Shown here piece after piece: positions 5,635 through 26,002 of a DNA stretch of 64,000 bases (positions are counted from its first letter, which is position 1; each line of letters starts with the position of its first letter). The stretch lies in the NCBI GenBank assembly GCA_044222185.1, contig JBGANV010000004.1, positions 448,001 through 512,000 of the forward strand. The letters are read 5' to 3'. The notes beneath the pieces are model-generated. The model made no database searches. It was not told the DNA's origin and saw nothing but the letters and a program-made list of their open reading frames with translations. This stretch comes from Planctomycetota bacterium (GTDB taxonomy: Bacteria; Planctomycetota; GCA-002687715; CAIWVZ01). The translations under genes and the position numbers were made by a program.

Positions 5635-8262
5635 ATGCTTCGCATCCCAAGGCTGATCTCGGAACAATTCGTGCGCAGCCGGCTCGCCCGGCGGGTCTTC
5701 GGTCTCGTCGTCGCCTGCGCGCTCGTTCCGCTCGCCCTGTTCGCCGTCGTGACGCAGTTGCAGGTGGGCGACGAGATCCGGGCACGTGCCGAGGCGCTCG
5801 TCCGGCACGAAGCCAAGATGTCCGGCGTCATCTTCTACGAGCGCTTGATCGTCCTCCTCTCCGACATGCGGACGCTCGCCAGCGATCTGAGGACGCGCGG
5901 CGGCGTCGACGCGGCCAGTCTCTCGCAGGAGTTGAGCGAGCTGTGGCGCGCGCGCGTCACATCGCTCGGGGTTGGGAGTTCGGACGGGTACTCCCGCGCA
6001 TTCATCGGAGCCAGGTTCTCGTTGCCGGAGTTCGACGCCGCGCAGCGCCAGCATCTGGCCCGCGGACCCGAGTTGCTCGTGTTGCGACCGGGGAACGTGA
6101 CGAATCCCCTCCAGCTCGTGATGACCTTCGACGATGCAAGGAGGGGCCGGTGCTACCTCGTCGCGGAGCCGAGCCCCGCATTCATCTGGAACCCGGACGG
6201 ATGGTTCACGCCGGACAGCGCGGTCGCCGTCATGTCGCCGTCTGGCGCCGGGCTGTTCACCTCGGTCGACGACCCGCCGCCGACGACCGTGATGGCGCAG
6301 GCGATCGAGAAGGATCCGTCCCAGGGAGCGCTGGCGTTCGGGGACGGTGACCGCGCCGAAGTCGGTGCCTACCGGACGTTGTTCCTCGAGCCCCACCTCG
6401 GGACGAATCTCCTCATCGTCCAGCATCGGCCAGTGCGTGACATCGAGGCGCCACTGTCGTCGTTCCGCTTCTGGTTCATCCAGGTAGCGACGCTGGCACT
6501 GCTCGGTGTCGCATTCGCGAGTTCCAAGATGATCCGCAGGATCCTCGCGCCGGTCGATCAGCTGCTCGCCGCGACGCAGCGAGTGGCACAGAAGGACTTC
6601 GAGTCCCGCGTGGCGATCACGTCACGGGACGAGCTCGGCGACCTGGGTCGGTCGTTCAACGAGATGACGGCGTCGCTCGCGCGCCATGAGAACGTCATGA
6701 CGGCGGTCAACGACATCGGCAGCACGCTCGGACGCACGCGCGACCCGGCGTCGATGATCGAGCAGATCGTCGGTGCCGGCGCGACGCTGTTCAACGCTGA
6801 TGGTGCCGCGGTCTACCTCAATGGAAGCGACGGGGTGCTCGGCCTTGCGCGCATGCGCATCGCGTCCCTCGACCTCACCATCGCCGGCAACTCGCCGGAG
6901 GCCGAGCGTCTCGAAACGGGCGCGTGTTCGCGCGTGCTTCACTCGATCGTCAGCGTCGAAGACGTGTACCGCCAGGATCCAGTGGCGTTCGAGCCGCAGC
7001 GCAAGCTCGACGAGGTCCTCGGCTACCACACGCGTTCGTTGCTCAACGTGCCCATGCGGGATCACGAAGGCGAACTGATCGGCGTCCTCCGCCTGTTCAA
7101 CGCCCGGAACCCCGAGACCGGCGAGGTCGTCACGTTCTCCGGGGAGGCCCTCCAACTCGCGGAGTCGCTCGCGGCACAGGCGGCCATCGCCGTGACGAAC
7201 AACAAGCTCGTCGCGGAGTTCAAGAACCTGTTCGACTCGCTGATTCAACTGCTCGCGGTCGCCATCGACGAGAAGTCGCCCTACACGGGCGGACACTGCA
7301 GGCGCGTTCCCGAAATCACCATGCTGATCGCGGATGCCGTCAGCCGTACGGCCACCGGCCCGTTTCGCGAGGTGTCGTTCTCGCCCGACGAGCTGTACGA
7401 GCTCAAGGTGGCCGCGCTGCTTCACGACTGCGGCAAGGTCGCGACCCCCGTCCACGTCGTCGACAAGGCGACTAAGCTCGAGACGATTCACGACCGGATC
7501 GAACTCGTGGACACGCGCTTCGAGGTCGTGCGGCGGGATCTCGAGCTTCGCGCCCTGGGCGAGGTGCGGCGGGAGTCCAGAAGCGGCGAGTCGGGCCGTG
7601 CCCCGAGCGCGCGACACGAGGAGGCCATCCGTCAGCTCGAGAGCGACCGCGCGTTCCTCCGCAAGGCGAACATCGGTTCGGAGTTCATGACGGCCGAGCA
7701 TCGGGAACGCGTTCGCGACATCTCACGCCGCTATCGGTGGCGCAACGTCGCGGGCGAGGAGGTCGATTTCCTCACGGCGGACGAGATCGAGAACCTCACC
7801 ATCCCCAAGGGCACGCTCAACCAGACGGAACGCGAGATCATCAATCTCCACGTCACGTCGACGATCCGCATGCTCCAGGCGCTGCCCTACCCGCGTGCGC
7901 TGCGGCGCGTGCCCGAGATCGCGGGCGCGCACCACGAGCGCATGGACGGCAAGGGGTATCCGCACGGATTGCGGCGCGACGACATCTCCCTTCAAGGCCG
8001 GATTCTCGGCCTCGCCGACATCTTCGAGGCGCTGACGGCCAAGGATCGCCCCTACAAGCCGGGCAAGAAGCTCAGCGAAGTCATGACGATCATGGGGCAC
8101 ATGGCGAACGAGGGGCACGTCGATCGGGACCTGTTCCGCCTGTTCGTCGAACAGCGCGTCTACCTGGATTACGCGCGGAGCATGCTCGATCCCGAGCAGG
8201 TCGACGCCGTGGACGTCGCGCGGATACCGAGCCTCGAGCAGCCCGAGTTCGCGTTCTCCTGA
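5635..8262 (+). CDS. Membrane-bound HAMP-GAF-HD-GYP cyclic-dinucleotide phosphodiesterase
   Basis: 2 TMs, HAMP (DELGDLGRSFNEM), GAF (YHTRSLLNVPM..IGVL), YTGGHC, LHDCGK, HHERMDGKGYP, ADIFEALT..RPYK. Confidence 0.92.
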   Translation: MLRIPRLISEQFVRSRLARRVFGLVVACALVPLALFAVVTQLQVGDEIRARAEALVRHEAKMSGVIFYERLIVLLSDMRTLASDLRTRGGVDAASLSQELSELWRARVTSLGVGSSDGYSRAFIGARFSLPEFDAAQRQHLARGPELLVLRPGNVTNPLQLVMTFDDARRGRCYLVAEPSPAFIWNPDGWFTPDSAVAVMSPSGAGLFTSVDDPPPTTVMAQAIEKDPSQGALAFGDGDRAEVGAYRTLFLEPHLGTNLLIVQHRPVRDIEAPLSSFRFWFIQVATLALLGVAFASSKMIRRILAPVDQLLAATQRVAQKDFESRVAITSRDELGDLGRSFNEMTASLARHENVMTAVNDIGSTLGRTRDPASMIEQIVGAGATLFNADGAAVYLNGSDGVLGLARMRIASLDLTIAGNSPEAERLETGACSRVLHSIVSVEDVYRQDPVAFEPQRKLDEVLGYHTRSLLNVPMRDHEGELIGVLRLFNARNPETGEVVTFSGEALQLAESLAAQAAIAVTNNKLVAEFKNLFDSLIQLLAVAIDEKSPYTGGHCRRVPEITMLIADAVSRTATGPFREVSFSPDELYELKVAALLHDCGKVATPVHVVDKATKLETIHDRIELVDTRFEVVRRDLELRALGEVRRESRSGESGRAPSARHEEAIRQLESDRAFLRKANIGSEFMTAEHRERVRDISRRYRWRNVAGEEVDFLTADEIENLTIPKGTLNQTEREIINLHVTSTIRMLQALPYPRALRRVPEIAGAHHERMDGKGYPHGLRRDDISLQGRILGLADIFEALTAKDRPYKPGKKLSEVMTIMGHMANEGHVDRDLFRLFVEQRVYLDYARSMLDPEQVDAVDVARIPSLEQPEFAFS

Positions 8263-8383: not shown

Positions 8384-8575
8384 ATGGAGGTTCGATTCGA
8401 TTGCGTGTTCGAGGGGAAGAGGATCTTCCAGGTCGTCCATTCCCAGAGTGACGCGGCGCTGTTCACCGGTACCGCAGCGCAGTGCAAGCGATTCCTCGAG
8501 ATCCATCACGAGAAGGCTGATCGGGCGAGCGGGGTGAGGCGACCCGGGACATCCGATCTCTCGACGGAAGGTTGA
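8384..8575 (+). CDS. Small hypothetical protein (63 aa)
   Basis: GGGGAG RBS before ATG; globular-looking sequence MEVRFDCVFEGKRIFQVVH... Confidence 0.5.
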   Translation: MEVRFDCVFEGKRIFQVVHSQSDAALFTGTAAQCKRFLEIHHEKADRASGVRRPGTSDLSTEG

Positions 8576-8841
8576 CGAGGCAGTGCGGCGGTGCGGGCTC
8601 CGGCTGGGGCGCGCCCTCCGACAAAAGAGCCGGCGAAGTTTGTTGCGCCGCCGAAGCGGCCACTGTAGTCTCGCGCCCCGTTGCTCCGGCCCGCCGCGGG
8701 CCGCTGCGTTTGAAGAGGGATGGACCTGGGGTTCGCATCGCCGCGTTGTGGCGACCGAAATGGCGTGGCATCGCTACGTGCGGGTTTCTCGTACGGACTG
8801 GCCAAACCAGGGCTTGTCGCATTCAACCGGAGTCGATGGGA

Positions 8842-10833
8842 ATGGCTCAGCCCGTTGCGCGCCGTGCGTTCGATCGCGTGCTGGTGATCATGTTCGAGAA
8901 CCAGTATCGCGGCTACGTCCTCGCCAATGCCTACATGCGCCAGTTGGCGAAGCGCGGGATCCAGCTCGGCAACTCGTTCGGGGTGATGCACCCCTCGCAG
9001 ACGAACTACATCGCGTCGATCGCGGGCGCGCTCTGCAACGTGACGAACGACGAAGTCCCGAAGCTGCTCACGGAGAAGACGCTTGCGGACCTCGTGCACG
9101 AGGCTCCGGGACGCCTAAGGTGGAAGGCCTACATGGACAGCTACGTCCCGGAGGCCACGCCCTGGACGCCGACCTTCACGCCGCGCGACGCACCTCCGTA
9201 CTACGTCAAGCACAACCCGTTTGCCTCGTTCGCGTCGGTCGTGCGCAACGAGGCGATGTGGCGATGCATCGACAACGAAGCCGGGTTCTTCGCCGACGTG
9301 CTGAACGGAACGCTGCCCGAGTTCTCCTGGTTCTCGCCGAACATCTGGAACGATGGCCACTGGCTCGACGGCACCACCGAAGAGTCCGTCCCTCGGGCGC
9401 CGGCCCTCGTCGACCAGGCCGCTCGGTGGCTCGAACGGTTCTTCAACCGGCTGCGGTTTCCCGGCGCCGACTCCCACCTTCCACCGGGGACCCTCGTCGT
9501 CGTGACGTTCGACGAGGCCGATTTCGAGGCCGACGATCTCCCAGAGCAGGCGTCGGCCTACGACGGCCCGAATCAGATCTACACCGTGCTGCTCGGTGAT
9601 CGCATCCGCCCCGGTTTCGAAGAGGAGGGCTTCAATCACTACAGCATGCTTCGGACGATCGAGATCAACTTCGGTCTGGGGCACCTCGGCCGCAACGACG
9701 CGGGGGCGAACTGGTTTCAGTTCCTCTGGGGGCGCCGTTTTCGATGGGGCCCGAGTCGGGAAACCCCGATCCACGGCGGTGGTGGTGTCTGCGCCGCAGG
9801 GCTCGGAGCGGCGCTCTTCGTCGCTCATGTGGGGGCTGATGGGGTCGTCCGCGTGAGAACGTATGCGGATGGGGCCTGGTCGGCCGCGGAGGACGTCCCG
9901 GTCGATGGGCGCGGTGGCGTCGCCATGGCGAGTACGTTTGAGCAGGTCGTGCTCGTCGCGTGTTCGGCCGGTGGAGCCGTTCATGCGACGACCTGGGATC
10001 CGCAGCATGGTTGGTCTGCACCGTCGGCGCGGCTGGACGGGCGGCGGATCACTGGCGTCGCCGCAGCCTCGTTCGACGGCGAACGGCGGATCATGCTGGC
10101 GATGAAGGACGATGCCGGGGGCATCGAGGCTCGCACGTGGCGGGGAGGGTCCTGGGGCCCGGCGGCCCCTGTCGGAGCCGTGCGATCCGAGGGCGCGATG
10201 ACGCTTGGCGCCTTGGGCGCGTCGCTCTACCTGATCGTCTCCGTCCCCGGCGAGAAGACCCTTCAAGTCGTGTCGTACAACTCGGCGGCGTTCAACGTTG
10301 TCACGGTCGCGAAGAACCCATACGGCGGCCCACAAGACGACACGACGGTCGATGAGTGGTCACCGTGCGCGTTTCCCGTGGCGCACTTCTCTTCGTGGCC
10401 GCAGCGGAACGAGTCGCGCGCGCCAACGACGCGAGCCTATGAAGCGGGCGGTCCTCTGGCGACCGCCACGCTCGACGGCGTCCTGCATCTGGTCCATCCG
10501 GGGGCGGCGAATTCGCTTCTACTCACGGAGACGTTCTCGATCGCCGGTTTGATGACGCCCTCGCAACCGGTCTCCTACAAGAGCCGGAGCGCCGCGAATT
10601 CGAGCAACGGGTTCGGAACCCTGGCCGAGGCCGGCTGGAGCAAGCAGGCAGCCCTGTTCGGGTCGCGGTGCGGGGCACGAGGTGCACTTGCCCTCGGGCG
10701 TGCCGATGGGCAGATCGTCCTCCTCTCGCGGGCCGAGGCTGGTTCCGCGGTGGAAATCCGCGTCGGACGGTACGTCGACGACGCGCAGCCCGAGCGTGTG
10801 TACGACGGGCATCGATCGAAGGAATGCCAATGA
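8842..10833 (+). CDS. Phosphoesterase (acid phosphatase/PLC, SapM-like) with a C-terminal repeat, probably beta-propeller, region
   Basis: VIMFENQ, HPSQTNY, YYVKHNPF, NDGH, VTFDE and FNHYSMLRTIE motifs; C-term ~W-S/G repeats; GGAG RBS. Confidence 0.85.
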   Translation: MAQPVARRAFDRVLVIMFENQYRGYVLANAYMRQLAKRGIQLGNSFGVMHPSQTNYIASIAGALCNVTNDEVPKLLTEKTLADLVHEAPGRLRWKAYMDSYVPEATPWTPTFTPRDAPPYYVKHNPFASFASVVRNEAMWRCIDNEAGFFADVLNGTLPEFSWFSPNIWNDGHWLDGTTEESVPRAPALVDQAARWLERFFNRLRFPGADSHLPPGTLVVVTFDEADFEADDLPEQASAYDGPNQIYTVLLGDRIRPGFEEEGFNHYSMLRTIEINFGLGHLGRNDAGANWFQFLWGRRFRWGPSRETPIHGGGGVCAAGLGAALFVAHVGADGVVRVRTYADGAWSAAEDVPVDGRGGVAMASTFEQVVLVACSAGGAVHATTWDPQHGWSAPSARLDGRRITGVAAASFDGERRIMLAMKDDAGGIEARTWRGGSWGPAAPVGAVRSEGAMTLGALGASLYLIVSVPGEKTLQVVSYNSAAFNVVTVAKNPYGGPQDDTTVDEWSPCAFPVAHFSSWPQRNESRAPTTRAYEAGGPLATATLDGVLHLVHPGAANSLLLTETFSIAGLMTPSQPVSYKSRSAANSSNGFGTLAEAGWSKQAALFGSRCGARGALALGRADGQIVLLSRAEAGSAVEIRVGRYVDDAQPERVYDGHRSKECQ

Positions 10834-13800
10834 GCACACCAAAGCAAGGCCGAGCGGCTCGAGATCCGTTGGAGTCGGCGTCGAGGACCGCGGCAGATCT
10901 GTCCACGGAACGGGCCCGGATGACGCACGATGCGGTCTGGCGCCTGGTGCAGCGTGGGCTGGTCTATCCGTCGCCGAATGCGATCTTCATCACGTTCTTC
11001 CGCAGTCGCAAGGCGTCGCCGCTGACGAAGGGGACCCTCGGCCAGGTGGTTCGTGGAACCCGCGCGCGGATCCATGCGGACTTCGGCAAGGCTCACACGA
11101 CGGCGATCCTGGGAGTCGGTTTCGATCTCTGGCGCGAGCTCTCCGCTCGGGACGGGACGTCGGTTCCCCTCGGGATGCAGCTCCACTCCGATGGTGAGAA
11201 AGCGGGCGGGGAGTCGTCCGACGGCGTGTTCGCGCGGCCGGGGACGGTTTTCGTCGACTCTGGCGCCGACCTGTGGTTCCACGTCAAGAGCGACAACCCC
11301 AAGCATTGCCAGGGCCTTCTCGAGTACTTGCGTCACGTGCTCGAGGTCGAGCTCGCGTGCATGGACCCGGCGCGGACCGTGTGGCAGGCGGCGGCGACCA
11401 AGTCCAACGCACCGGACCATCGGGGTGGCAAGGTGTTGGGCAGCCGGTTCTCCGAGAACCTCAACAACGCGACCGATCCCATCACGATCCAGCAGCAGAC
11501 GATCGTCGGGTTCGAGGATCCGACGCACATCGGTGGATCTTTCGTGTTGGCCCAGCGATTCGTGATCAACTGGGGGCAGATCCTCGCGATGGCTCCGCAG
11601 CACGTCGAAGACCTGGTGGGGCGCTCGACGGACGACCGGCTCGTCCCGTCCCACGATGACCGGAGCCACATCAAACGCGCTCGGGCGTTCGACGAGCACG
11701 GGAACGCCATGTCGGTCCTGCGGTTGGGCCTGCCATATGGTCGCTCGTCCGCGATCGAGAGCGACGACCTGCTCGCGAAGGGCGCGAGCCGTCGCGACGA
11801 GGAAGGTCTGTACTTCGCCGGGTACGCCAAGAGCGCGGCGGCGCTCGAGCGGATCATGGAGCAGCAGATCGGCGACGTCCCAGGGTTCATGTCCGACCGC
11901 TTGCTGGGGCACGTCCGCGCCAACCTCGGTGGCTTCTACTACGTCCCGAGCCTGCCCGATCTGGGGATCGAACCCGAGTCCGCGTCGTCGTGGCGGCGGT
12001 TCCCTGGGGTCGACTGGTCACGTCTGGATCGCCACTTCGACCAGACGTCGCCCAACGGCTACATGCACTACAACCACAAGGAGTACTTGTTCCGGATGGC
12101 GACGATGACGGCCGAGGAGCGAGCGACGTTCCTCCCGCCATCGCACCGCGTGCTCACTCTGCTCGCGGGCGTGTTCTCGCGCTGGCAGGACAACTGGTAC
12201 TTCGATCGCTCCCAGAAGGAGTTCTCCCACCTCCGCGTCTACCTCGAGCGCGAAGACGGACGCGAGGTGGCCGAGAAGGTCATGAGCCTCTCGATCGCCG
12301 AGCGCGGCGGCTGGGCGACCAAGGTCCTGCTGGGGCGCGTCCTCGTCAGCGACGAGTACGGGTTCCGGGGACGACGAAAGGATGGTCGCGGGAACCTCGT
12401 CAACGGTGCGGACACCTACCGGATCCACCCCAGCGAAATCCTCGTGGGTTCCATGCCGAATCTGGGCCTCGGCCAGGGAAAGCACCTCATCGATTTCGCG
12501 CGAGAGAGCGAACGGCTCGAGAACTTCTTCGACAACCTGAGCTATGCCTCGGGCGTCGGCCACATCGTCCCGCACTATGCGACGGCGCTGCGCGTCGGGC
12601 TCGGCCGGCTGACGGCCGACGTCGCCGCGCGGCGCGATCGGGCAAAGTCCGAGAGCAAGCGGCAGTTCTACGCCGGCGCGGTCCTCGCGCTGGAGGGCGT
12701 CGCCGAGCATTGTCGTGCGTTTGCACGGCTCGCCGCCAAGATGGCGGACGGCATGGGCCCGGGGCAGTCTGCGGAGCGGAGCAACCTTCAGGAGATCCGC
12801 GACCGGATGAACCGGATCGCCGAGACGGCACCCGCGACGTTCGTCGAAGGTGCGCAGCTCCTGTTCACCCTGCACTCGTGCCTCCATCACGCGGGCGAAC
12901 CGACCGCGATCGGGCGGATCGATCAACTCCTGCATCCGCTCTACGAGGCGGACGTCCGGGCCGGGCGCATAGACGAGAGCCTTGCGCAGGAAATCATCGA
13001 CTGCTTCTGGGTCAAGGTCGGCGAGAAGGCGCAGCTCAACCGGCAGTTCGTCGAGGATCACCAGGTCTTCGGGAACATGGCCATGGGAGGGGCGTCGGGG
13101 AACTACCCCCAGGGCTCCTCGCTGAATCAGTGGATCCAACAGGTGACCGTGGGCGGGACGATCGCCGACGACACGCCCGGCGCCGGGACACCGGCCTACA
13201 ACGACATCACCTGTCTGTGCCTCCGCGCCGCGCGACGGCTGCCGCTGAATGCACCGTGCCTTTCGCTCCGGATGCGGCCGGACATGCCGCAGGAACTGCT
13301 CCGCGAGGCCGCGCTCGCCATCCTCTCGGGTGGTGCCCACCCGGTCCTCGTTTCCGATGCGAAGGTCATTCCGGGGTTGGCGCAAAGCGGCGACGACGTC
13401 GGCCGCGGCACGCACGAAACGGCGTCGACGCCAGTCGCGGAGAAGGCCGCGGGGCTCTGGAACAGCAGGGTCCGCTTGCGAGATGCGCGCGATTACGCGT
13501 GTGACGGCTGTTACGAGCCGCAACTCACCGGCACGAGTTGGTTCACGCTGGGCGGAATGCCGTCCACGCAGCCGCTCGAGGCGGCCCTCAACCAGGGAAA
13601 GACGTGGCAGAGTGCGGGCCCCGTGTGGTTCCGTGGGCAGAAGGTGTCCTTCACCTCGGAGCCGGCGCGCGACATCCCGAGCTTCGAGCGCTTGCTCGAC
13701 CTCTACATCGAGCACCTGAAGTGGATGTACGCCAAGCAGGTCGACGGGCAGCTCGGACTCTTCGGCAGGATGAACTCCGTCTGCCCCGCTCCGCTGTTGT

Positions 13801-14750
13801 CGGTGTTCATCGAAGACTGCATCGACAAGGGGCTCGACTACTATGAGGGCGGCGCCCGCTACAACGTCGTGGCTCCGTGCTTCAGCGGGCTCTCGACGCT
13901 GATCGACTCGCTTTGGGCGATCCGCGCCATGGTGTTCGACGAGCGAACGGCGACGACGTCGCTCCCCGAACTGGTGACGGCGCTGCTCTGCAACTGGGGT
14001 GAGAACATGGCGGAGCCGTTCATCAGCACGCTCGAGGGGTCGGCGCGCATCGAAGCCCGTGCCGAGCGATTCCGCCAGCTCCGCGCCGTCGCCATGGCCC
14101 AGCCGAAGTTCGGGCGCGGGAATGCAGACGTCGATCGGTTCGGCGACGCAATCGTCGGCCGCATCGCTGCGGCAGCCGTCGACGTCTTCGTGAATCCGGC
14201 CGAGCGGACCGCGGCGAAGATGCTCGGTTTCGCGCAGCGCCTCGGGACCAAGGAGATGCCGTTCGGCGGGTTCCAAATCCAACCGGGCGTGGGTTCGTTC
14301 GAGAACTACCTCGACTGGGGGAACATGTCCGGCGCCTCGGCGGACGGGCGTCGCAGCGGCGATCCGTTCGCCTCCGACATCAGCCCGGCGCCGGGCTACG
14401 GCGATCGCGCGATCGACTCGCGCGAGGCTCCGATCATCCGTGTGATGGAGGGGTACTCGGGCCCCGGCATCGAGGCGATGTGGGACGGCGCTCCTGTCGA
14501 TCTGAACATCCGAGAGGACTTCCCGCTCGAATCGCTGGTCGCAGCGCTCGGCGCCTTCGCGCAAGGACGCGGGTCGTCGTTGATGACGATCACCTGCGCG
14601 GATGCGGCGACGATGGCGCAGGCGGCGCGAGACCCGGAGAAGTACGATTTGCTCCGAGTCCGCATGGGCGGTTGGACCGAGTTCTTCGTCGTGATGTTCC
14701 CGGCGCATCAGGCCCAGCACCAACGTCGCCCCATCAGCACCGTGGAGTGA
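10830..14750 (+). CDS. DyP-type peroxidase fused to a glycyl radical enzyme (PFL-like) domain
   Basis: N-term DyP motifs DLWFHVKSD, GGSFVLAQRF, SHIKR (proximal His), LRLGLPYG, GLYFAGY, GGFYYVPS; C-term GRE motifs GHIVPHY, IGRIDQLL, AQEIIDCFWVK, YACDGCYEP, PKFGRG, GASADGR, PEKYDLLRVRMGGW. Confidence 0.88.
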   Translation: MSTPKQGRAARDPLESASRTAADLSTERARMTHDAVWRLVQRGLVYPSPNAIFITFFRSRKASPLTKGTLGQVVRGTRARIHADFGKAHTTAILGVGFDLWRELSARDGTSVPLGMQLHSDGEKAGGESSDGVFARPGTVFVDSGADLWFHVKSDNPKHCQGLLEYLRHVLEVELACMDPARTVWQAAATKSNAPDHRGGKVLGSRFSENLNNATDPITIQQQTIVGFEDPTHIGGSFVLAQRFVINWGQILAMAPQHVEDLVGRSTDDRLVPSHDDRSHIKRARAFDEHGNAMSVLRLGLPYGRSSAIESDDLLAKGASRRDEEGLYFAGYAKSAAALERIMEQQIGDVPGFMSDRLLGHVRANLGGFYYVPSLPDLGIEPESASSWRRFPGVDWSRLDRHFDQTSPNGYMHYNHKEYLFRMATMTAEERATFLPPSHRVLTLLAGVFSRWQDNWYFDRSQKEFSHLRVYLEREDGREVAEKVMSLSIAERGGWATKVLLGRVLVSDEYGFRGRRKDGRGNLVNGADTYRIHPSEILVGSMPNLGLGQGKHLIDFARESERLENFFDNLSYASGVGHIVPHYATALRVGLGRLTADVAARRDRAKSESKRQFYAGAVLALEGVAEHCRAFARLAAKMADGMGPGQSAERSNLQEIRDRMNRIAETAPATFVEGAQLLFTLHSCLHHAGEPTAIGRIDQLLHPLYEADVRAGRIDESLAQEIIDCFWVKVGEKAQLNRQFVEDHQVFGNMAMGGASGNYPQGSSLNQWIQQVTVGGTIADDTPGAGTPAYNDITCLCLRAARRLPLNAPCLSLRMRPDMPQELLREAALAILSGGAHPVLVSDAKVIPGLAQSGDDVGRGTHETASTPVAEKAAGLWNSRVRLRDARDYACDGCYEPQLTGTSWFTLGGMPSTQPLEAALNQGKTWQSAGPVWFRGQKVSFTSEPARDIPSFERLLDLYIEHLKWMYAKQVDGQLGLFGRMNSVCPAPLLSVFIEDCIDKGLDYYEGGARYNVVAPCFSGLSTLIDSLWAIRAMVFDERTATTSLPELVTALLCNWGENMAEPFISTLEGSARIEARAERFRQLRAVAMAQPKFGRGNADVDRFGDAIVGRIAAAAVDVFVNPAERTAAKMLGFAQRLGTKEMPFGGFQIQPGVGSFENYLDWGNMSGASADGRRSGDPFASDISPAPGYGDRAIDSREAPIIRVMEGYSGPGIEAMWDGAPVDLNIREDFPLESLVAALGAFAQGRGSSLMTITCADAATMAQAARDPEKYDLLRVRMGGWTEFFVVMFPAHQAQHQRRPISTVE

Positions 14751-14753
14751 GCG

Positions 14754-16154
14754 ATGACCAACAAGAACGCAGTCAGCACGTACCTCGTGGAATCAATTCC
14801 CATCGGTCTCGAGGATCTCCGTGGGACGATGGGAGTGCAGTACACCGAGGACGTCCTCGTGCGGCTGGTCCGCGGCGCGAAAGAGTCCATCGACCTCACT
14901 GCGATGTACTGGAACCTCCTGCCGGATCCGGACGGTGACGACGAGAAGGGGTTCACGGCGCAGCAATTCGACGCCATGGGCGCCGCGACCGGCCGCAACC
15001 TCTTCGAGGCCCTTCGCGACGCGGCGCGCCGCAAGGTGCGGATCCGGATCGTCGAAAGCCCAGGATTCTCGGGGAAGAGGCAGGAGTCGACCGACCTCAA
15101 GGAGGCCTTCCCAGACTGCGTGACCGTCCGCCAGATATCGATGAACGACTGGTATGGCGGCGGGATCATGCATCAGAAGATCTGGGTGTTCGATGCCTGC
15201 CACGTCTACGTCGGCTCCGCCAATATGGACTGGAAGTCCATCATGCAGGTCAAGGAGATGGGCGTCGTCGTCGAGAATTTGCCCCCGTTCGCGCAGGACG
15301 TGACCCGGTACTTCGAAGGGTGGTGGGCGTTCTGCGCGCTGAAGCCGGCCACGGCCGTCGCGTTCGATCCGAGGGCGGGTGTGGAGCGCCTGGTGCCGCC
15401 CTGGTCGGCGCTGCTCCACGAAGCCCAGCGAAAGCCATCGCCCTTCGACGACGATCGTTTTCGCTCGGACGCGAACCGCTCGAAGCCCCTGTCGGTCCCG
15501 TTGGATGGTCAGACCGCCGGCTTCTTCTTGACTGGGTCGCCCGACGAAGTGCGTGGTCGAGGCAGGACGCTCGATGCGGACGGATTGGTCTACACGATCG
15601 ACGATGCGAAGAAGTCGATCTGCGTGAGCGTGATGGACTTCGGGCCCATGAGCCTGTACTCGCGGGCGCCACTGGGGCCCGGCGCCACGCGGGGGATTCC
15701 GACGGACACTCCCGTTTGGTGGCCGCAGCTGTTCGACGCCCTCCTCTCGGCGGTCCTGACGAGGAACGTCCACGTCCGCCTCCTGGTCAGCAAGTGGGCT
15801 CACACCTCTCCACTGATCGAGCCGTTTCTCGCGGCCTTGCAGCACGCGGCGGACGCCGGCCGTGTGGATCCTCGAATGTCGAGCGGCCAGCTCGAGATCA
15901 AGCTGTTCGTCATCCCGGGCTGGGACCAGACCGCAGGGACTCACCGGCGCTACCCGGGCCACAGCCGCGTCAACCACACGAAGTACATCGTGACGGACCG
16001 GCGCATCAACATCGGGACGTCGAACATGACGTGGGACTACTTTGCGGCAACCGCCGGCGGCAGCGTGAACACGGACCACGTCGGCCTCGTGTGCAGCTTG
16101 CAGGCCGTGTTCGACCGCGACTGGGGATCGAGCTACGCGTATCGGTTGGCCTGA
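14754..16154 (+). CDS. Phospholipase D superfamily protein, PLD3/K4-like
   Basis: Two HKD motifs, HQKIWVFD..GSANMDW and NHTKYIVTD..GTSN; N-term LVESIP. Confidence 0.9.
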   Translation: MTNKNAVSTYLVESIPIGLEDLRGTMGVQYTEDVLVRLVRGAKESIDLTAMYWNLLPDPDGDDEKGFTAQQFDAMGAATGRNLFEALRDAARRKVRIRIVESPGFSGKRQESTDLKEAFPDCVTVRQISMNDWYGGGIMHQKIWVFDACHVYVGSANMDWKSIMQVKEMGVVVENLPPFAQDVTRYFEGWWAFCALKPATAVAFDPRAGVERLVPPWSALLHEAQRKPSPFDDDRFRSDANRSKPLSVPLDGQTAGFFLTGSPDEVRGRGRTLDADGLVYTIDDAKKSICVSVMDFGPMSLYSRAPLGPGATRGIPTDTPVWWPQLFDALLSAVLTRNVHVRLLVSKWAHTSPLIEPFLAALQHAADAGRVDPRMSSGQLEIKLFVIPGWDQTAGTHRRYPGHSRVNHTKYIVTDRRINIGTSNMTWDYFAATAGGSVNTDHVGLVCSLQAVFDRDWGSSYAYRLA

Positions 16155-16221
16155 ACGCGTCGCCGCACCATGGTGCGGCGTCGGAACGGCGGTCGAACCG
16201 CTGGCACAGTGAGGATGAATC

Positions 16222-18225
16222 ATGGCGAAACGAACTCAGACGCCTGGAAAGCGCAGCGGGAAGGCGAGGAGTAGGACGGCCGCCGCCACGGGCGCGCCCA
16301 GGCCTCGCTCGCAATCGGGCCACAAGCCTTGGCTGGACGTTGCCGCGCCGGCGACGCGCGCGCTGCGGATCTACACACAGGACCCGAGTGCCGGGACCTA
16401 CGTCGGCAACCTAAGCACCGTTCACGTGCCGTGGGAGGCGGTGAGGCCCGGGCCCGTCGGCTCCAAGGTCGCCGTCGTCGATTACGACGCGTCGAATCGC
16501 TGCTACTACACCCCGATCGACCTCGATCATCCCTTCGTGCTGGCTCGCGACGGCGTCGACCCCTCCGAGTCGGATCCGCGGTTCCATCAGCAGATGGTCT
16601 ACGCCGTCGCGACGCGGACCATCGAGATGTTCGAGGCCGCGCTGGGGCGGAAGATCCGATGGCGACGTGCGGATCGCTTCTCCGACAAGTCCAACGAGCA
16701 GCAGTGGCACAAGACGGACGACATCGAGGTCCTCCATCTCTACCCCCATGCGATGCAGGAGGCGAACGCCTATTACAGTCCGCAGGCCCACGGCATCCTG
16801 TTTGGATACTTCACGGCGAACACGACGCGGCAAGGGCGCAACCTGCCGGGGCAGCGGGTCTTCACGTGCCTCTCGCACGACATCATCGCCCACGAAGTGA
16901 CGCACGCGATCATCGACGGGATCCGCACGTACTTCACCGAGGCGACGAATCCGGATGTCCTTGCATTCCACGAGGGCATCGCCGATGTCGCGGCGCTGTT
17001 CGCCCATTTCACGCAACGTGATGCCTTGTTCGAGACGATCAGGAAGACGGGCGGACGCTTGTACCAGGCGGACCTGGATGCGGATGCCTGTGGCAGCGAC
17101 CGTTCCGGTCACATGATCGCGGCCCAACGTCGCGAGGTGAATCCGTTGATCCAGCTCGCGCAGCAGTTCGGGGAAGCGCGGGGCACGGGACGCGGGCTTC
17201 GTTCAGCCTTGAGCACGCCGCCGTCGCCGGACGACATCGAAAAAAAGCCGACCGAGCCGCACACGCGAGGCGCCATCCTCGTCGCGGCCGTCTTCGATGC
17301 CTTCTTCTCGGTCTACGCGCGCAAGAGCGCCGACTTGTTCCGCATCTTCCACGCTGGCGGCGGGCGCCCCGACCAGGACGAGGTGCCAGCGCCGCTCGCG
17401 GAGCAACTCGCGCGCACGGCCACGGACCTCTCCCAGCGTTTCTTCCGGCTCTGCGTCCGGGCTCTCGACTACTGTCCGCCGGTCGACATCACGTTCGGCG
17501 ACTACTTGCGCGCCCTGATCACCGTCGGCACCGAGCTTCACCCGGAGGATCCCGATCGCATCCGTGACGCGCTCATGCAGGGCTTCCGGCTGCGCGGGAT
17601 CTTCCCGGAGAGCGCGAGTTTCTTCTCCGAGGACGCGTTGCGGTGGCCCCCCATGTTGCCTGGGATGCTCCCGCCGATCGGAGCACGGACGATCGGCGAT
17701 CCGCAGACCGGACGCAGCCTCGTCACTGGGCTGGTCTTCGGCGGGCCCAACGGCCTCACGCGACGCGAGAAGGACATCAACGGCCGCGTCCTGCGGGCCT
17801 ACATGAAGGAGAACGCCGCGGCGCTGGGCCTCGATCCGAAGTTGCCGGTCTCCGTCCCCTCGTTCCATCCGATGTTTCGGTCGGGGGATGACGGACGGAC
17901 CCGCGCCGAGATGGTGGTCGAGGTCGTGCAGCTGAGACGGGCGCCGTTCGATCCGGCGGTGACCGGGGTTGGGGAGTTCCCATTCCGCGGAGGCGCGACT
18001 GTGATCATTTCGGCACCGGAGGTTGCGCCTGATTCCTCGGGAAGCCTCACGGCGAAGGACCCGGAGATCCGCTTCGTGATCGGGAAACCGATTTCTGGGC
18101 CGGGAGGTGTCCAGCGCGAGTCCGCTCAGCGGCACTTCACGCTGTCCCTGGGCCTCGCGCAGGGGCACTGTGACGATGCCCGGCACTTCCAGGTGAACTT
18201 CGCATTGTTGCATGGAGACGGCTGA
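16222..18225 (+). CDS. Gluzincin-type (M4-like) metallopeptidase
   Basis: NAYYS, DIIAHEVTHA (HExxH), FHEGIAD third ligand, EPH. Confidence 0.8.
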   Translation: MAKRTQTPGKRSGKARSRTAAATGAPRPRSQSGHKPWLDVAAPATRALRIYTQDPSAGTYVGNLSTVHVPWEAVRPGPVGSKVAVVDYDASNRCYYTPIDLDHPFVLARDGVDPSESDPRFHQQMVYAVATRTIEMFEAALGRKIRWRRADRFSDKSNEQQWHKTDDIEVLHLYPHAMQEANAYYSPQAHGILFGYFTANTTRQGRNLPGQRVFTCLSHDIIAHEVTHAIIDGIRTYFTEATNPDVLAFHEGIADVAALFAHFTQRDALFETIRKTGGRLYQADLDADACGSDRSGHMIAAQRREVNPLIQLAQQFGEARGTGRGLRSALSTPPSPDDIEKKPTEPHTRGAILVAAVFDAFFSVYARKSADLFRIFHAGGGRPDQDEVPAPLAEQLARTATDLSQRFFRLCVRALDYCPPVDITFGDYLRALITVGTELHPEDPDRIRDALMQGFRLRGIFPESASFFSEDALRWPPMLPGMLPPIGARTIGDPQTGRSLVTGLVFGGPNGLTRREKDINGRVLRAYMKENAAALGLDPKLPVSVPSFHPMFRSGDDGRTRAEMVVEVVQLRRAPFDPAVTGVGEFPFRGGATVIISAPEVAPDSSGSLTAKDPEIRFVIGKPISGPGGVQRESAQRHFTLSLGLAQGHCDDARHFQVNFALLHGDG

Positions 18226-18227
18226 AC

Positions 18228-19706
18228 ATGGCGACGCGAAAGACCCGTTCCTCTTTGAAGTCGCCGGCCACGAAAAAGCCGGCCTCGTCCCCGCGCGCAC
18301 CGCGCAGGACGGGCGCGAAGGCTGCGGCTCGTGGACCCGGTCGCAAGGTGAGCTCGGCGCGCGGTTCCGTCCGCGTGCGCATGTACCGCGTCGGGTTCGG
18401 CGACTTCTTCCTCTTGACGGTGCCGGGCAACGACGGGCCGGCGCACATCCTTATCGACTGCGGCGTTCACGCCGCGAACATCGGGACGATGGACGCATGC
18501 GTCAAGGACCTCGTGAAGGCTACGGGCAACAAGCTCGCGCTGGTGATCGTCACGCACTACCACGCCGATCACATCTCGGGTTTCGCATCGAACTACGATG
18601 ATTTCGCGAAGTTCGATCACATCGGCGCCGTTTGGATCACCAATCGGCTCGACCCGAGCGACACCGGCAAGTCGAAGTTCCTCGCGCAACTGACGTCCGT
18701 GGCGCAGCAGTTGCAACTGCACCTGGGCGTGAGAGACGACGACGCGGCCGTCGAGGCGCGGTCCAAGGTCGAGAACGCGCTTGGTGTGGCCGCAGGTGGA
18801 GGGTCGAACGCCAAGGCGCTCCAACTCCTGCGGAGCGGCTTCAAATCCAAACCTCCCGTGCACTACTACCAGGGAGGGGACACCCCGTACCTGCCGCCGG
18901 AGCTCGATGGCGCGATCGAGGCCGAGATCCTCGCTCCATCGCCGAAGGACTCCGGTGGCGAGTTTGCTGCGAGCGACAACAAGACGGAGCAATATCTCGC
19001 GGCGGTCGGCGCCGACGGGCTCGAGGATCAGACTCGCGTGCAGCCGTTCGAGAAGGACTGGCCCGCGACGGCCGCGTCCTATCCTCCTGAGGCCTTCGAC
19101 GAGTTCGACTCGGGAATGGTCCGCGGGAGCAAGGCCCGGAACGCGGACGGTGCGCGTGCGATGGAGTCGTTGCTCGAGACGATGCAGCCGGACGTGCTCG
19201 CGGCCACCGCCGACAAGCTCGATGGCACACTGAACAACCAGAGCCTCGTCGTCCTATTCACGTGCCAGGGCAAGAAGCTTCTTTTCGTGGGCGACGCGCA
19301 GTGGGGCAACTGGGCCTACTGGCTCTACGGCAAGGCTGTCACAGGCAAAGACCCGGGAATCACCGACCGCGCGAAGCAGATCCTCGGCTCCATCGATTTC
19401 TACAAGGTGGGGCACCACGGCAGCACGAATGCGACGCCGATCCCGGCCGTCGCGGCCTTGAACAGCAGCTGCGCAGCCATGTGCTCGACGGCAACCGGCG
19501 CCTACGGTGATTCCAAGAAAGGCACGGAGGTCCCGCGCACCGTCCTGATCGAGAGCCTGGAGAAACAGCTGAAGAATCGACTCGTCCGCAGTGACTGGGT
19601 TGCCGCCTCCGGCGTCAAACCCGATCCGGAAGCGCTCGAAGAGATCCGGACGCTTCCCACCGGGTTTTCGACGCCCGGCGACCTGTACATCGACTTCACG
19701 CTCTGA
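18228..19706 (+). CDS. Metallo-beta-lactamase-fold hydrolase (ComEC-like)
   Basis: VGFGD, LIDCG, THYHADH, NNQSLV, LFVGDA and KVGHHGSTN motifs. Confidence 0.87.
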   Translation: MATRKTRSSLKSPATKKPASSPRAPRRTGAKAAARGPGRKVSSARGSVRVRMYRVGFGDFFLLTVPGNDGPAHILIDCGVHAANIGTMDACVKDLVKATGNKLALVIVTHYHADHISGFASNYDDFAKFDHIGAVWITNRLDPSDTGKSKFLAQLTSVAQQLQLHLGVRDDDAAVEARSKVENALGVAAGGGSNAKALQLLRSGFKSKPPVHYYQGGDTPYLPPELDGAIEAEILAPSPKDSGGEFAASDNKTEQYLAAVGADGLEDQTRVQPFEKDWPATAASYPPEAFDEFDSGMVRGSKARNADGARAMESLLETMQPDVLAATADKLDGTLNNQSLVVLFTCQGKKLLFVGDAQWGNWAYWLYGKAVTGKDPGITDRAKQILGSIDFYKVGHHGSTNATPIPAVAALNSSCAAMCSTATGAYGDSKKGTEVPRTVLIESLEKQLKNRLVRSDWVAASGVKPDPEALEEIRTLPTGFSTPGDLYIDFTL

Positions 19707-20036
19707 GCAGTCTGCCGACTCCATCTCGGTCGCTGCTTTCGGCGCGTGGCGGTCCGCCCCTGGGACGCCACATCGCGGTTTGAAACGACCTGATCGGCCT
19801 CCGTCAGGTCGCTGGCGCATGCCCCGCGCCGATTTCCTGCGAGGAGAAATGCAGGCTCCGAGAAGCCGCGAGTTGTCCCGAATGCAACGGCGCGATGCAG
19901 AGGCCCGGCGCGCCGGGCGAAGTTTCCGCGTTGCTGCTCGCGCCGATGACCACGTTTCCGCGGCGGCGTGAAGAAACCTGTCGCGCCGCGCGATCCATCC
20001 CGCTCGAACCTCCTGGATCGAAGAGGAGGCTCACCG

Positions 20037-20591
20037 ATGGAAGATCGCGAATGGACTCCGCTCGTCGATGAACTGCGAGCGGGGCGGATTGCAGCTTGGA
20101 ACGTGGCGTGCGAGGAGCTTCGACCGCGTGTCGTCGCCTACGTGGAGCGTCTCGGCGCCGATCGGCACGGTGCGGAAGACGTGGCGCAGGACGTGTTGGG
20201 CACCGTGTACGGGAAGCTCGATCGACTGAAGCGATCACGTCGCTTCTTGTCCTGGGTGATGGCCATCGCGCGGAACCGCCTGCGCTCGCGCGTGCGCGCC
20301 CGCCGTCCCACCGAAGAGCTGAGCGAGGAGATCGCGATGCCGACGGCCAACGGGCTCGATCGGATCTTCGGCGACGATCTGCGTCGTGCGGTGATGCGGG
20401 AAGTCCGACAGCTGGCCGAGCCCACACGGCGGATGGTCGAGCTTCGGCTGTTCGAGGATTGCGCTCCCCACGAGATCTCTCTTCGACTCGGGCTGCCCTG
20501 CGCCTTGGTCCGCCGTCGCTCGCACGACGCCATGTGCATGCTGCGCCGTCGACTGGCGCGCCGCATCGGCCATGGCCCCGAGTCCTCCTGA
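20037..20591 (+). CDS. ECF RNA polymerase sigma factor
   Basis: AEDVAQDV..FLSWVMAIARN (region 2) and EISLRLG HTH (region 4); GAGGAGG RBS. Confidence 0.85.
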   Translation: MEDREWTPLVDELRAGRIAAWNVACEELRPRVVAYVERLGADRHGAEDVAQDVLGTVYGKLDRLKRSRRFLSWVMAIARNRLRSRVRARRPTEELSEEIAMPTANGLDRIFGDDLRRAVMREVRQLAEPTRRMVELRLFEDCAPHEISLRLGLPCALVRRRSHDAMCMLRRRLARRIGHGPESS

Positions 20592-20659
20592 ACACCTGAT
20601 TCGGCCGGCCGCGGGGTCGGCTTCGTTTCGCCAAGTTCGTGAACATCTGGAGTCGTGAC

Positions 20660-21400
20660 ATGAAATCGATCGCTCTGTTCTTGTCGTTCGTGTTCGTCGT
20701 TCCATCCGTGGCGCTCGCGCAAGACAACGCCAAGTCCATGCTGGACGTGGCGGCGAAGAAGGCAGCCTCCGGCAAAGGCAAGGTCGGTGAGGAGCTGAAC
20801 GGCATCCTCAAGGAAGCGGCGGGGCTCTATGACCAGGTCGCCGCGAAGTTCCCCGCGGCGCAGACGGAGTGTGCACATGCCCATCTGGAGGCCGGGCGTC
20901 TGCGCAAGCGCGTCGGGGATCTCGCGGGCGCCGAGGCATCGTTGAAGCTCACGGCCGCGGTGGCGGCCGAGCCCAAGTTCGCGTCAGAAGCCCTGCACGA
21001 CCTGGCGACGATCTATCGGAAGACGAAGCGGGCTGCGGAGGCGCAGCAGGCACTCGAGCGGATCGTCTCGGAGTTCCGCAACGAACCCCGCCAGAGAGCG
21101 GAAGCGCTGAGCCGTCTGGCGGCCATGCACCGCGCCGCGAAGAAGCCGGATCTCGCCGAGGCGTCGCTCCGCCAGATCCTCAGTGACCACGGTGATCTGT
21201 GGAGTGCATCCACGGAGGCCCTCGACGATCTGGTGGCCCTCCAGATCGCTCAGGGCCAGGAGGCGGAAGCCAAGAAGACCCTCGCCGCGCAGGGCGAAGC
21301 GTTGAAGACCCGTTTCCACGGGACGCGCCACGAAGGGCGGTTGAAGGTCGTCCTGGATCGGATCGCGCTTCGGTTCAAACTCGACGATGACGGTGAGTGA
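20660..21400 (+). CDS. Secreted TPR-repeat protein
   Basis: Signal peptide ending ALA-Q; helical A..L..A repeats. Confidence 0.75.
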   Translation: MKSIALFLSFVFVVPSVALAQDNAKSMLDVAAKKAASGKGKVGEELNGILKEAAGLYDQVAAKFPAAQTECAHAHLEAGRLRKRVGDLAGAEASLKLTAAVAAEPKFASEALHDLATIYRKTKRAAEAQQALERIVSEFRNEPRQRAEALSRLAAMHRAAKKPDLAEASLRQILSDHGDLWSASTEALDDLVALQIAQGQEAEAKKTLAAQGEALKTRFHGTRHEGRLKVVLDRIALRFKLDDDGE

Positions 21401-22934
21401 GAGGCGTACGACCGTCGCGAGCGGGCCGCCGATCCGCGCCATCGGGGTGTGGGCGTTGATCCTTGCCGCCGTGCTGGTGGCCGGTTCCTTCGAGCCTGGC
21501 GACGGCGACACGGACGAAGCGGCGCCGCAGCCGCCAGCGTTCGTCGACGCGCAGCCGCCGCCGTCGTTGCCGTCGGACATCGTCGCGGCCCTGCGGCGCG
21601 TGGCCGTCGCACGCGAGGTCGTCGCGCGCGGTGGACCGCCGCCCAGGGCCTTTGGCGCTGATGCGCAGGTGGCGGCCGAATGGGCCGCGGAGCGCATGCC
21701 CCTCGACGAGTCGGGGAGCGCGCGTGCAGCGCTCGAGCTTCTGTGTGAAGCCGAGCGGGAGTTGGCCGGTGCGGTCGCGACGTCCGCGCGCGCGGCCGCG
21801 CACGGCGCTCGCGACGAGGCCGTCCGTTGGGCCGTCGGCTGGGGCGGCGGTGACGCGGTCGAACGTCTCGTGAGAACCCTGGACACTCCCGAGACGGTGC
21901 GGTTGCACGACGCGCTCACGGAGCGGTGCCGGGATGTCGATCGGGGCCTCGTAGCAGCGATCATCCTCGCTCGTGCGCGCGCCGGCGACGCGGACGTCGA
22001 GGGCGTGGTGGTGGACGCCCTGTCGCTGGACGACGGTGACGTCCTCGCGATCGCTGCGGAGGCAGCGTCGTGGCTGGGCCCGCTCCGCCCCGTCCCGGCG
22101 TTGCGGCGAGCGCTCGGGCGCACGCATTCGACTGCCGCTGCGTGGGCGATCGCGCGGGCGCTCGGCCCCGATCTCGACCGGAGCGATCTGCAGGGGCTCG
22201 TGTCGCGGCGCGACGTTCCGGCGGAGGATCTCGCGCGGGTGATCGCGTCCGCCTCGCGACGGGAGCCGCCGACGCCGATGCGGGCGGAGGCGTGGGCGCT
22301 CGTCCGCGCGCTGTTGGACGCGGAACGTGAGCCGTCGACGGCTGCTGGATGGACGCGCCTCGCCGCACGGGGCGTGACGCCGCTGGATCTGCGCGTCGCG
22401 GAGCGGTCGCGTGTTGCCGGTGATGTCGTGCGCCTGGCGATCGACGCCGAACTCACGGAGCTTCGGGCGGCCTCGACACGTCCGCCGCCCTCCGATGGCG
22501 CATCGACGACCGAGGCGTCGTGGATCCCGCTCGCGCGCGTCGCCTGGGAGCGGAGGGCGCGCCTCTCAGCCCGGCTGATCGAGTCGATGGTTGCGACTCC
22601 GGATCGCGTCGAGGCGTGCCTGGTGTTGGCCCAGCTCGGTCTTCGTCGGGGATTCGACGCGCTGAGCGAGATGGCCACCCGGCCAGGGGACCTGGGTCGC
22701 GCGGTGGTGGCCCTGCGGGCGCTTCGCCAAATCGCCGTCGTCGCGCCGGATGATGCGAAGGTCGGCGACCCCGAGGCCTGGGCGCCGCTCGCATCGTGGA
22801 TCCGCCGCGATGGCATTCCGGGAATCGAGGACGCGCTCGTCCGCAACGGGGTCATCACCGCGGCGGAAGCGGCGGAACGGAAGCAACCGGTGGTTCAGCC
22901 GCTGCCGTCGAGCGCGTCGACCCGCGCGAGGTAG
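21387..22934 (+). CDS. Hypothetical Ala/Arg-rich helical protein with N-terminal TM or signal
   Basis: Long ORF overlapping the TPR gene end; hydrophobic N-terminus; start uncertain. Confidence 0.5.
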   Translation: MTVSERRTTVASGPPIRAIGVWALILAAVLVAGSFEPGDGDTDEAAPQPPAFVDAQPPPSLPSDIVAALRRVAVAREVVARGGPPPRAFGADAQVAAEWAAERMPLDESGSARAALELLCEAERELAGAVATSARAAAHGARDEAVRWAVGWGGGDAVERLVRTLDTPETVRLHDALTERCRDVDRGLVAAIILARARAGDADVEGVVVDALSLDDGDVLAIAAEAASWLGPLRPVPALRRALGRTHSTAAAWAIARALGPDLDRSDLQGLVSRRDVPAEDLARVIASASRREPPTPMRAEAWALVRALLDAEREPSTAAGWTRLAARGVTPLDLRVAERSRVAGDVVRLAIDAELTELRAASTRPPPSDGASTTEASWIPLARVAWERRARLSARLIESMVATPDRVEACLVLAQLGLRRGFDALSEMATRPGDLGRAVVALRALRQIAVVAPDDAKVGDPEAWAPLASWIRRDGIPGIEDALVRNGVITAAEAAERKQPVVQPLPSSASTRAR

Positions 22935-25481: not shown

Positions 25482-25503
25482 TCGTGCCCGGAGGCCTTGG
25501 CGC

Positions 25504-25914: not shown

Positions 25915-26002
25915 GGCGTGCTCCTGGATCGGACCCGCAGCCCGCGGATCGGTGGGACAATCCGCGGTGGAGCACGCGCCGGCAAGGGGCGCTGGCGTCA
26001 GC

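Follow-up and report, generated by a model that had tools for sequence, protein, structure and literature searches.

A DyP-type heme peroxidase fused to a glycyl radical enzyme in a Planctomycetota bacterium: a possible radical eliminase without a radical-SAM activase

How might a glycyl radical enzyme (GRE) acquire its radical when the gene encoding it begins with a heme peroxidase and no activase gene lies near it? GRE chemistry, the cleavage of C-C, C-O, C-N or C-S bonds by a thiyl radical, is regarded as strictly anaerobic, and GREs are thought to depend on a dedicated, oxygen-sensitive radical S-adenosylmethionine (radical-SAM) activase. The question is raised by a gene at 10830..14750 (plus strand) of a 64,000-nt stretch from a Planctomycetota bacterium (assembly GCA_044222185.1, contig JBGANV010000004.1, positions 448,001-512,000, forward strand), referred to here as the window and numbered from its first letter, which joins a dye-decolorizing peroxidase (DyP) and a GRE in a single protein of 1306 aa. 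It belongs to a conserved GRE lineage, found across numerous phyla of bacteria and in a number of eukaryotic groups, in which the enzyme is always joined to a heme peroxidase and an activase is usually lacking. Of the explanations considered below, the one that we tentatively take as the best reading is that the fusion protein is a cytoplasmic, self-contained radical enzyme.

The fusion itself is already in print, listed as DyP 'subclass P2', 'DyP-PFL' or 'DyP-B-PFL fusion' (PFL being pyruvate formate-lyase) in three papers (PMC5041501, PMC9719856, PMC8469222), and the window gene is a member of this group by its architecture and by the same Glu substitution in the peroxidase half. The first of them, from 2016, names the 'DyP-PFL' fusion, finds it in proteobacteria and ascomycetes and calls its significance elusive; it also reports that the fused gene of Chaetomium is the most induced peroxidase gene, rising 3-fold with H2O2 and 18.5-fold with peracetic acid (PMC5041501). 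The second, from 2022, defines the fusion as subclass P2, calls it unexplored and proposes a protective role for the DyP, which would shield PFL and its activase against H2O2 (PMC9719856), and the third mentions one such fungal gene (PMC8469222). The accessible portions of the subclass P2 papers note the architecture, assume a PFL-type activase and report no activity, activase survey or gene neighbourhood. The initial annotation of this DNA had supposed that the pairing might already be listed in databases, and knew of no biochemical characterisation; all three papers note it and none characterises it, and in the full-text literature, with subscription journals outside the scope, neither a biochemical characterisation of the fusion nor a statement that its carriers lack an activase was found. 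The idea that the fused peroxidase activates the GRE appears to be unpublished within the literature searched; new here are the activase survey of carriers, the neighbourhood survey, the placement of the family in a clade apart from stand-alone GREs and a two-domain AlphaFold model.

The gene is well defined. An open reading frame (ORF) free of interruption runs over 10668..14750 (plus strand), in agreement with the single uninterrupted frame of about 1306 aa described at the outset. A GAAGGA motif stands 6 nt before the likely start, the ATG at 10830, which shares an ATGA overlap with the stop codon TGA of the preceding phosphoesterase gene; as called in the source (P0002, 1276 aa), the gene would begin at the ATG at 10920. 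Full-length homologs share 49-74 % identity with the window protein. An assembly chimera, which the initial annotation had named as an outcome that would undo its reading, is ruled out: a species-genome scan returned 160 pattern-matched stretches, and the uninterrupted architecture was confirmed at 135 places, complete chromosomes included.

A complete DyP domain had been placed at about 10.9-12.0 kb, and the profile searches bear this out. Residues 41-376 (10950..11957, plus strand) match the NCBIfam DyP family model TIGR01413 at 111 bits against a cut-off of 100.5, over profile positions 1-321 of 323, and residues 212-375 match Pfam Dyp_perox_C (E 4.3e-14). In phmmer alignments to TyrA (2hag) and other solved DyPs, SHIKR of the fusion pairs with SHIKR around the proximal His and LRLGLPYG with LRQSMPYG around the distal Arg, which places these residues at His280 (11667-11669, plus strand) and Arg298 (11721-11723, plus strand); the DyP motif GFVDG is replaced by RFSEN, the distal Asp becoming Glu209 (11454-11456, plus strand). 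A Glu at the distal site is described as occurring in subclass P2 and as able to support Compound I formation (PMC9719856). Glu209, His280 and Arg298 are each conserved in 116 of 116 sequences, a set made up of the query and 115 homologs of at least 1200 aa out of 120 listed. The DyP half therefore looks intact by its residues, and heme binding and H2O2 turnover are predicted for it. Class P/B DyPs (TyrA 2hag/2iiz, DypB 3qnr, YfeX 5gt2 and the encapsulin-associated DyPs) share with the fusion the two-ferredoxin-fold family model across residues 41-376 as well as the aligned proximal His and distal Arg. They differ from it in carrying the Asp of GXXDG where the fusion has Glu within RFSEN, and in that the DyP domain of the fusion clade is never free-standing but is joined to a GRE of ~920 aa.

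The second half comprises a complete GRE fold at residues ~386-1306 (11985..14747, plus strand), recognised by Foldseek from the predicted structure, within which Pfam PFL-like (PF02901) covers residues 564-1114 (E 2.1e-101). Its closest solved relatives are propanediol dehydratase 5i2a (E 2.7e-43), glycerol dehydratase 1r8w and CutC (phmmer, E from 2.7e-43 to 2.5e-39). In the phmmer alignment, from which the numbering is taken, His578 (12561-12563, plus strand), Cys894, Glu896 and Gly1281 stand opposite His164, Cys433, Glu435 and Gly763 of 1r8w, residues whose catalytic roles are described in the glycerol dehydratase literature. The Cys finger loop G893-C894-Y895-E896-P897 (GCYEP, 13506..13520, plus strand) aligns with GCVEP of 5i2a and 1r8w, and the Gly loop R1278-M-G-G1281-W1282 (RMGGW, 14661..14675, plus strand) with their RVAGY, the codon of Gly1281 being 14670-14672; both motifs lie exactly where the initial annotation had placed them.

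That annotation had further described a full PFL-like barrel retaining both radical-relay residues. The part concerning the residues stands, since Cys894 and Gly1281 are aligned and conserved; the domain around the Gly fits less well, as Pfam Gly_radical (PF01228) scores 18.9 bits on the C-terminal 200 aa, under its cut-off of 22.2, and the Gly domain is therefore divergent. When conservation of the Gly and Cys, put forward as a test, was counted among the 116 sequences, Cys894 was found in all of them and Gly1281 in 113, together with His578 in 116 and Glu896 in 115; position 895 is Tyr in 111 and Phe in 4. His578, Cys894, Glu896 and Gly1281 are also invariant in a 53-sequence alignment reaching down to 33 % identity, and this set together with one of 34 sequences includes fern, brittle-star and protist members. 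Judged by these residues, the GRE half looks catalytically intact.

As to its subfamily, the sequence comparisons assign the GRE half to the diol-dehydratase/CutC (1,2-eliminase) type of fold and not to PFL proper. TIGR01255, the model for PFL proper, gives 22.9 bits against a cut-off of 994, and the loop GCYEP has a single Cys, where PFL proper has an adjacent Cys-Cys pair. All equivalog GRE models, however, lie far under their cut-offs (TIGR01774, 224 bits against 678; the CutC model, 148 against 1050). The 1,2-eliminases (1r8w, 5i2a/5i2g, 5fau) provide the top matches in both sequence and fold, and their GVGH His, GCxEP Cys and Glu and C-terminal RxxG[YW] Gly all align with the fusion. Against this likeness stand an identity of ~20 %, the extra N-terminal DyP domain and a different pocket, with E690, P691, T906 and G1155 in the fusion where 1r8w has H281, S282, D447 and Y640; furthermore, the fusion host has no recognised activase, and the fusion hosts named in the genome scan are mostly aerobes.

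An AlphaFold2 (AF2) model covering residues 107-1306 and built on 53 aligned sequences reached a mean pLDDT of 89.9 and a pTM of 0.91, and therefore one fixed two-domain body is predicted. Foldseek matched the model to whole GRE chains of ~790 residues (5i2g, 5fau and 1r8w, TMt 0.78-0.79, best E 9e-42); residues 386-563, which Pfam leaves unnamed, are thus predicted to belong to the GRE fold, as its N-terminal portion, rather than to a spacer.

Is the association of the two halves accidental or lasting? A full HMMER search restricted to the GRE part yielded 3342 matches. Among the listed matches that span most of the GRE region at more than ~370 bits, nearly all are proteins of 1000-1836 aa in which the GRE part begins at residue 350-690, the two exceptions being P0123 (1021 aa) and P0138 (860 aa); shorter listed matches are confined to a portion of it. 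The first stand-alone GREs, of 740-850 aa, appear among the matches listed at 294 bits and at most 33 % identity, and are uncharacterised members of the PFL2/glycerol-dehydratase subfamily. Dyp_perox_C is present in 5 of 7 distant members examined. In a FastTree phylogeny of 69 GRE domains (38 from long proteins, 30 from stand-alone GREs, and P0138), the 38 long proteins make up a clade of their own, separate from the 30 stand-alone GREs, with support of 0.686, or 0.958 when P0138 is included. P0138, encoded on a 146-kb contig, has a fused-type GRE without a DyP domain and lies at the base of the fused clade; it may represent an ancestor-like form that stands alone, or the product of a gene that has been split. 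Conservation across the 115 homologs is even along the protein, at 54 % in the DyP domain, 61 % in the inter-domain stretch, 63 % in the barrel and 61 % in the Gly domain. The tree and the domain architectures indicate that the DyP-GRE fusion is old and obligatory.

Named carriers include Myxococcota, Pseudonocardiales, cyanobacteria, Bacteroidota, Acinetobacter, Hahella, a fern, a brittle star, a choanoflagellate and Amoebozoa, the protist members being P0133 (Diaphanoeca grandis), P0146 (Mastigamoeba balamuthi), P0147 (Pelomyxa schiedti) and P0141 (Phalansterium solitarium). The choanoflagellate protein P0133 carries an extra N-terminal C2 (lipid-binding) domain. The fusion was found in none of 40 sampled relatives of the window's host (4 of the same family, 18 of the same order and 18 of the same phylum), and it occurs in 4 of 81 sampled genomes of Acinetobacter, the genus of carrier G036. 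Such a patchy distribution indicates that the gene has moved horizontally, and on these sequence surveys the host's copy is horizontally acquired.

The initial annotation had seen the fusion as a GRE of oxic cells, in a host that also encodes an aa3-type oxidase and a photolyase. Both genes are present in the window, COX1 at 46072-47829 and the photolyase at 22895-24421 (minus strand); the host genome has four COX1 matches, and the COX1 of the window is nearest to Planctomycetota proteins (62-66 % identity). The carriers named in the genome scan are mostly aerobes. The claim does not hold for the whole family, however: two anaerobic Archamoebae, Mastigamoeba and Pelomyxa, have divergent members of it, and the family is therefore not confined to aerobes.

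If the GRE half makes radicals, an activase would conventionally be expected, and this was examined in the host and in other carriers. The host assembly (7.08 Mb in 16 contigs, 93.8 % complete) contains a single PFL-like gene; no NrdD was found in it, and no GRE activase was detected at cut-off, the best scores being 23.3 bits for TIGR02494 (cut-off 174) and 27.5 for TIGR02493 (cut-off 232). The observation that the 64 kb hold no radical-SAM gene was reproduced: of the host's 38 Radical_SAM (PF04055) matches none lies in the window (C14:448001-512000), and the nearest is at C14:304746. The carrier survey covered 50 whole genomes, from 50 of the 80 loci kept by the species-genome scan. TIGR02493 and TIGR02494 both reach cut-off in the same four carriers (Shewanella abyssi, Chromobacterium alticapitis, Actinophytocola oryzae and a Saccharothrix sp.), and two more, G001 and G038, have pflA only in pieces over several frames. 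The remaining 44 of 50 show no activase match above ~66 bits, against the cut-off of 232 for TIGR02493, and include complete chromosomes of Archangium, Cystobacter, Corallococcus, Pedobacter, a Chitinophagaceae strain and Acinetobacter. In four of the six carriers with pflA (G001, G014, G024 and G044) it directly adjoins an ordinary PFL of 770-860 aa.

The pflA-like sequence of G001 (C7:742935-743611) is spread over two or three frames right after an intact canonical PFL, and that of G038 (C7:51778-52246) is likewise split over two or three frames in a genome where no canonical PFL was found; the two could be decaying genes or could reflect indel errors of assembly.

The stretches of 10 kb around the fusion at 81 loci contain 1164 ORFs that do not overlap it. 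CxxxCxxC occurs in only six of these, of which three resemble radical-SAM genes, each of another kind: a B12-type gene, the pflA of Chromobacterium and a gene that is AmmeMemoRadiSam-like by its motif. No radical-SAM neighbour recurs across the 81 loci. With an activase at cut-off in 4 of 50 carriers and no such recurring neighbour, the consistent co-occurrence with a dedicated activase that would have spoken against the initial annotation is not seen. As a rule, the fusion family is without a radical-SAM activase.

Heme residues and eliminase residues that are invariant together, a fusion that is obligate, a confident model of a single body and the lack, in general, of an activase are best accounted for by a built-in heme radical source. 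We accordingly lean, with considerable reserve, towards a self-contained radical eliminase that is started by heme and H2O2 and acts on a diol-like substrate. In such an enzyme the heme would react with H2O2 to give Compound I, and the oxidising equivalent would travel within the protein as far as the GRE core, where it would generate a thiyl radical at Cys894, Gly1281 perhaps serving as a radical store. The thiyl radical would then abstract a hydrogen from a substrate bearing a hydroxyl next to a leaving group, and Glu896 and His578 would assist a 1,2-elimination to an aldehyde or ketone.

Parts of this scheme have parallels elsewhere. In prostaglandin H synthase the heme makes a Tyr radical, and in class I ribonucleotide reductase (RNR), which shares its barrel fold with the GREs, a radical made at a metal site is passed on to a Cys. 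By analogy, the fusion would share with both a protein radical made at a metal or heme and relayed to a catalytic site, and with class I RNR a Cys thiyl in that fold; neither is related in sequence to the DyP half, and the relay in the fusion is a prediction. If the heme does start the radical, the assumptions that GRE chemistry is strictly anaerobic and activase-dependent would both be overturned, and a third route for feeding a radical into the barrel fold would be added to those of radical-SAM enzymes and RNR cofactors. Even if the idea is wrong, the family remains an uncharacterised enzyme.

A number of observations weigh against a heme-started eliminase. O2 destroys glycyl radicals, a difficulty for any aerobe. 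The Gly_radical model stays under its cut-off, Gly1281 is Ala, Asn or a gap in 3 of the 116 sequences, and the otherwise invariant Gly-Gly could be retained for loop shape alone. The AF2 model is without residues 1-106, and a Tyr/Trp relay from the heme to Cys894 or Gly1281 is hypothetical, with W396, W452, W456, Y457, W495, Y510, Y895 and W1282 as conserved candidates for it. Any of the host's 38 radical-SAM matches could be an unrecognised activase in an assembly that is 93.8 % complete; pflA is present, whole or fragmented, in six of the 50 carriers, and in Chromobacterium alticapitis (L103) a canonical pflB-pflA pair (21596-22375) lies on the same contig ~8 kb from the fusion (10001-13897), with opposite-strand genes between. 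P0138 is without a DyP domain, and the divergent Archamoebae members belong to anaerobes that have PFL systems. In the literature no measured activity, heme content or radical was found for the fusion, and a putative PFL activase is reported in Chaetomium (PMC5041501).

The strongest alternative is that the GRE half performs no radical chemistry at all, so that the protein is essentially a peroxidase with a substrate-binding body, or uses the Cys, Glu and His for acid-base or thiol chemistry, Gly1281 merely shaping its loop. The 44 carriers without an activase, the low Gly_radical score, the mostly aerobic life of the named carriers and the four altered pocket positions would all be in keeping with it. 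It is difficult to see on this explanation, however, why Gly, Cys, Glu and His should have been kept together in bacteria, a plant, an animal and protists, and the whole GRE fold, Gly domain included, is modelled confidently and matches active GREs. We consider this alternative unlikely, albeit one to be taken seriously.

Less likely still is a conventional GRE whose radical-SAM activase is encoded elsewhere and was missed by the models, the DyP removing H2O2 protectively. Such protection has been proposed (PMC9719856) and a putative activase reported in one fungus (PMC5041501); the 38 radical-SAM matches of the host, the six carriers with intact or fragmentary pflA and the divergent Archamoebae members also speak for it. 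The adjoining pflA of four of those six carriers is, however, explained by the standard PFL beside it, and Acinetobacter, Pedobacter and myxobacterial carriers, complete chromosomes among them, have nothing above ~66 bits against 232. Further, no radical-SAM neighbour recurs at the 81 loci, and the fusion is carried by a fern and a brittle star, organisms of a kind not known to have a GRE activase. A peroxide scavenger, moreover, needs neither covalent fusion nor co-conservation at 54 % identity.

That the heme domain is a sensor or gate, at which H2O2, O2 or NO switches the C-terminal enzyme on or off without radical transfer, is improbable: the peroxide induction in Chaetomium (PMC5041501), the predicted fixed two-domain body and the metallo-beta-lactamase (MBL) and phospholipase D (PLD) members of the gene block in the window's clade, which resemble parts of defence systems, would suit it, but the invariant distal Arg and acidic residue needed for Compound I chemistry would be superfluous for a sensor, and the source of the radical is left unexplained.

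Some indication of the substrate of the proposed eliminase may come from the gene block in which the fusion lies, five tightly spaced genes at 8572-19706 encoding a phospholipase C (PLC)-like protein, the DyP-GRE fusion, a PLD-like protein, an HExxH protein and an MBL protein. The first is a PLC/AcpA-type phosphoesterase (PF04185, E 9.8e-16) at 8572..10833 (plus strand), whose true start is probably the ATG at 8836 or 8842 as judged from the sequence; homologs of 642-693 aa adjoin the fusion in L036-L039 and L074, with a cut piece of 137 aa at a contig end in L061. Beginning 3 nt past the fusion stop, a PLD-superfamily gene (14754..16154, plus strand; Pfam PLDc_2, PLDc_3 and PLDc) encodes two HKD motifs (HxKx4D) at residues 140 and 408 and gives weak DrmC and NucT matches, and its homologs (64-68 % identity) adjoin the fusion in L037, L038, L039, L045 and L061.

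It is followed at 16222..18225 (plus strand) by a 667-aa protein of no named family, with HExxH at residue 224, for which no Pfam, NCBIfam or PDB match was found; the Atlas clusters that contain it are labelled 'hypothetical protein' and show distant features of M4/M36 peptidases. No PDB relative was found for the PLC-like protein either. The last gene, 2 nt past the preceding stop, encodes an MBL-fold hydrolase (18228..19706, plus strand; Pfam Lactamase_B) with HxHxDH at residue 110, which matches the PADLOC LmuA-type model at 70 bits and also Avs1a and RT-associated MBL models. The HExxH and MBL genes are conserved in L037, L039 and L061.

The block recurs at 56-71 % identity in metagenome-assembled genomes (MAGs) labelled Reyranella, Myxococcales and Acidobacteriaceae, and partly in three further MAGs, and the genes flanking it are not conserved between loci. 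No signal peptide was found in the four neighbours, the PLC-like N-terminus included. The LmuA-type match of the MBL protein and the weak DrmC match of the PLD-like protein make a defence or catabolic role possible; PADLOC gave no match for the fusion itself. An Rfam search returned two tRNAs only and no riboswitch, there are no operon-related promoter-like sites, and terminator-like sites occur at chance level.

In other clades a second PLD-like family stands beside the fusion at six loci (L045, L050, L066, L074, L089 and L093) and a 5'-nucleotidase/metallophosphoesterase at five (L046, L077, L099, L100 and L104), Hahella having also an S1/P1 nuclease near it (L100:8316-9107). Overall, a phosphoesterase-type neighbour is found in 17 of the 81 loci, the window's clade included. 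In many carriers, Acinetobacter and Pedobacter among them, the fusion stands alone, and no conserved partner gene was found at the 81 loci, the commonest non-overlapping neighbour family occurring in only 13 of them and lying 5-8 kb away. The phosphoesterases that recur beside the fusion suggest, as a weak inference from gene context, that the substrate may be a diol or polyol released by phosphoester cleavage, for instance a lipid head group, sugar or nucleoside.

Taken in its widest form, the proposal would be that this is the first GRE-fold enzyme to make its own radical from heme and H2O2 with no activase, running in oxygen-respiring bacteria, fungi, plants and animals, and that in the window's clade it is part of a mobile five-gene phosphoesterase block and could act on a polyol or ribose moiety set free by the enzymes of that block, in catabolism or even defence. 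In this breadth we regard it as a possibility that is rather doubtful.

Beyond the block, long ORFs without a Pfam match lie within 19804-30783, at 19804-20811 (minus), 20984-22858 (minus), 26097-27197 (minus), 27209-28594 (plus) and 28567-30783 (minus); as the window has 66 % GC, not all of these need be genes. Immediately before the block, and not conserved beside the fusion elsewhere, an 875-aa signalling protein of HAMP-GAF-HD/HD-GYP type is encoded at 5635-8262 (plus strand).

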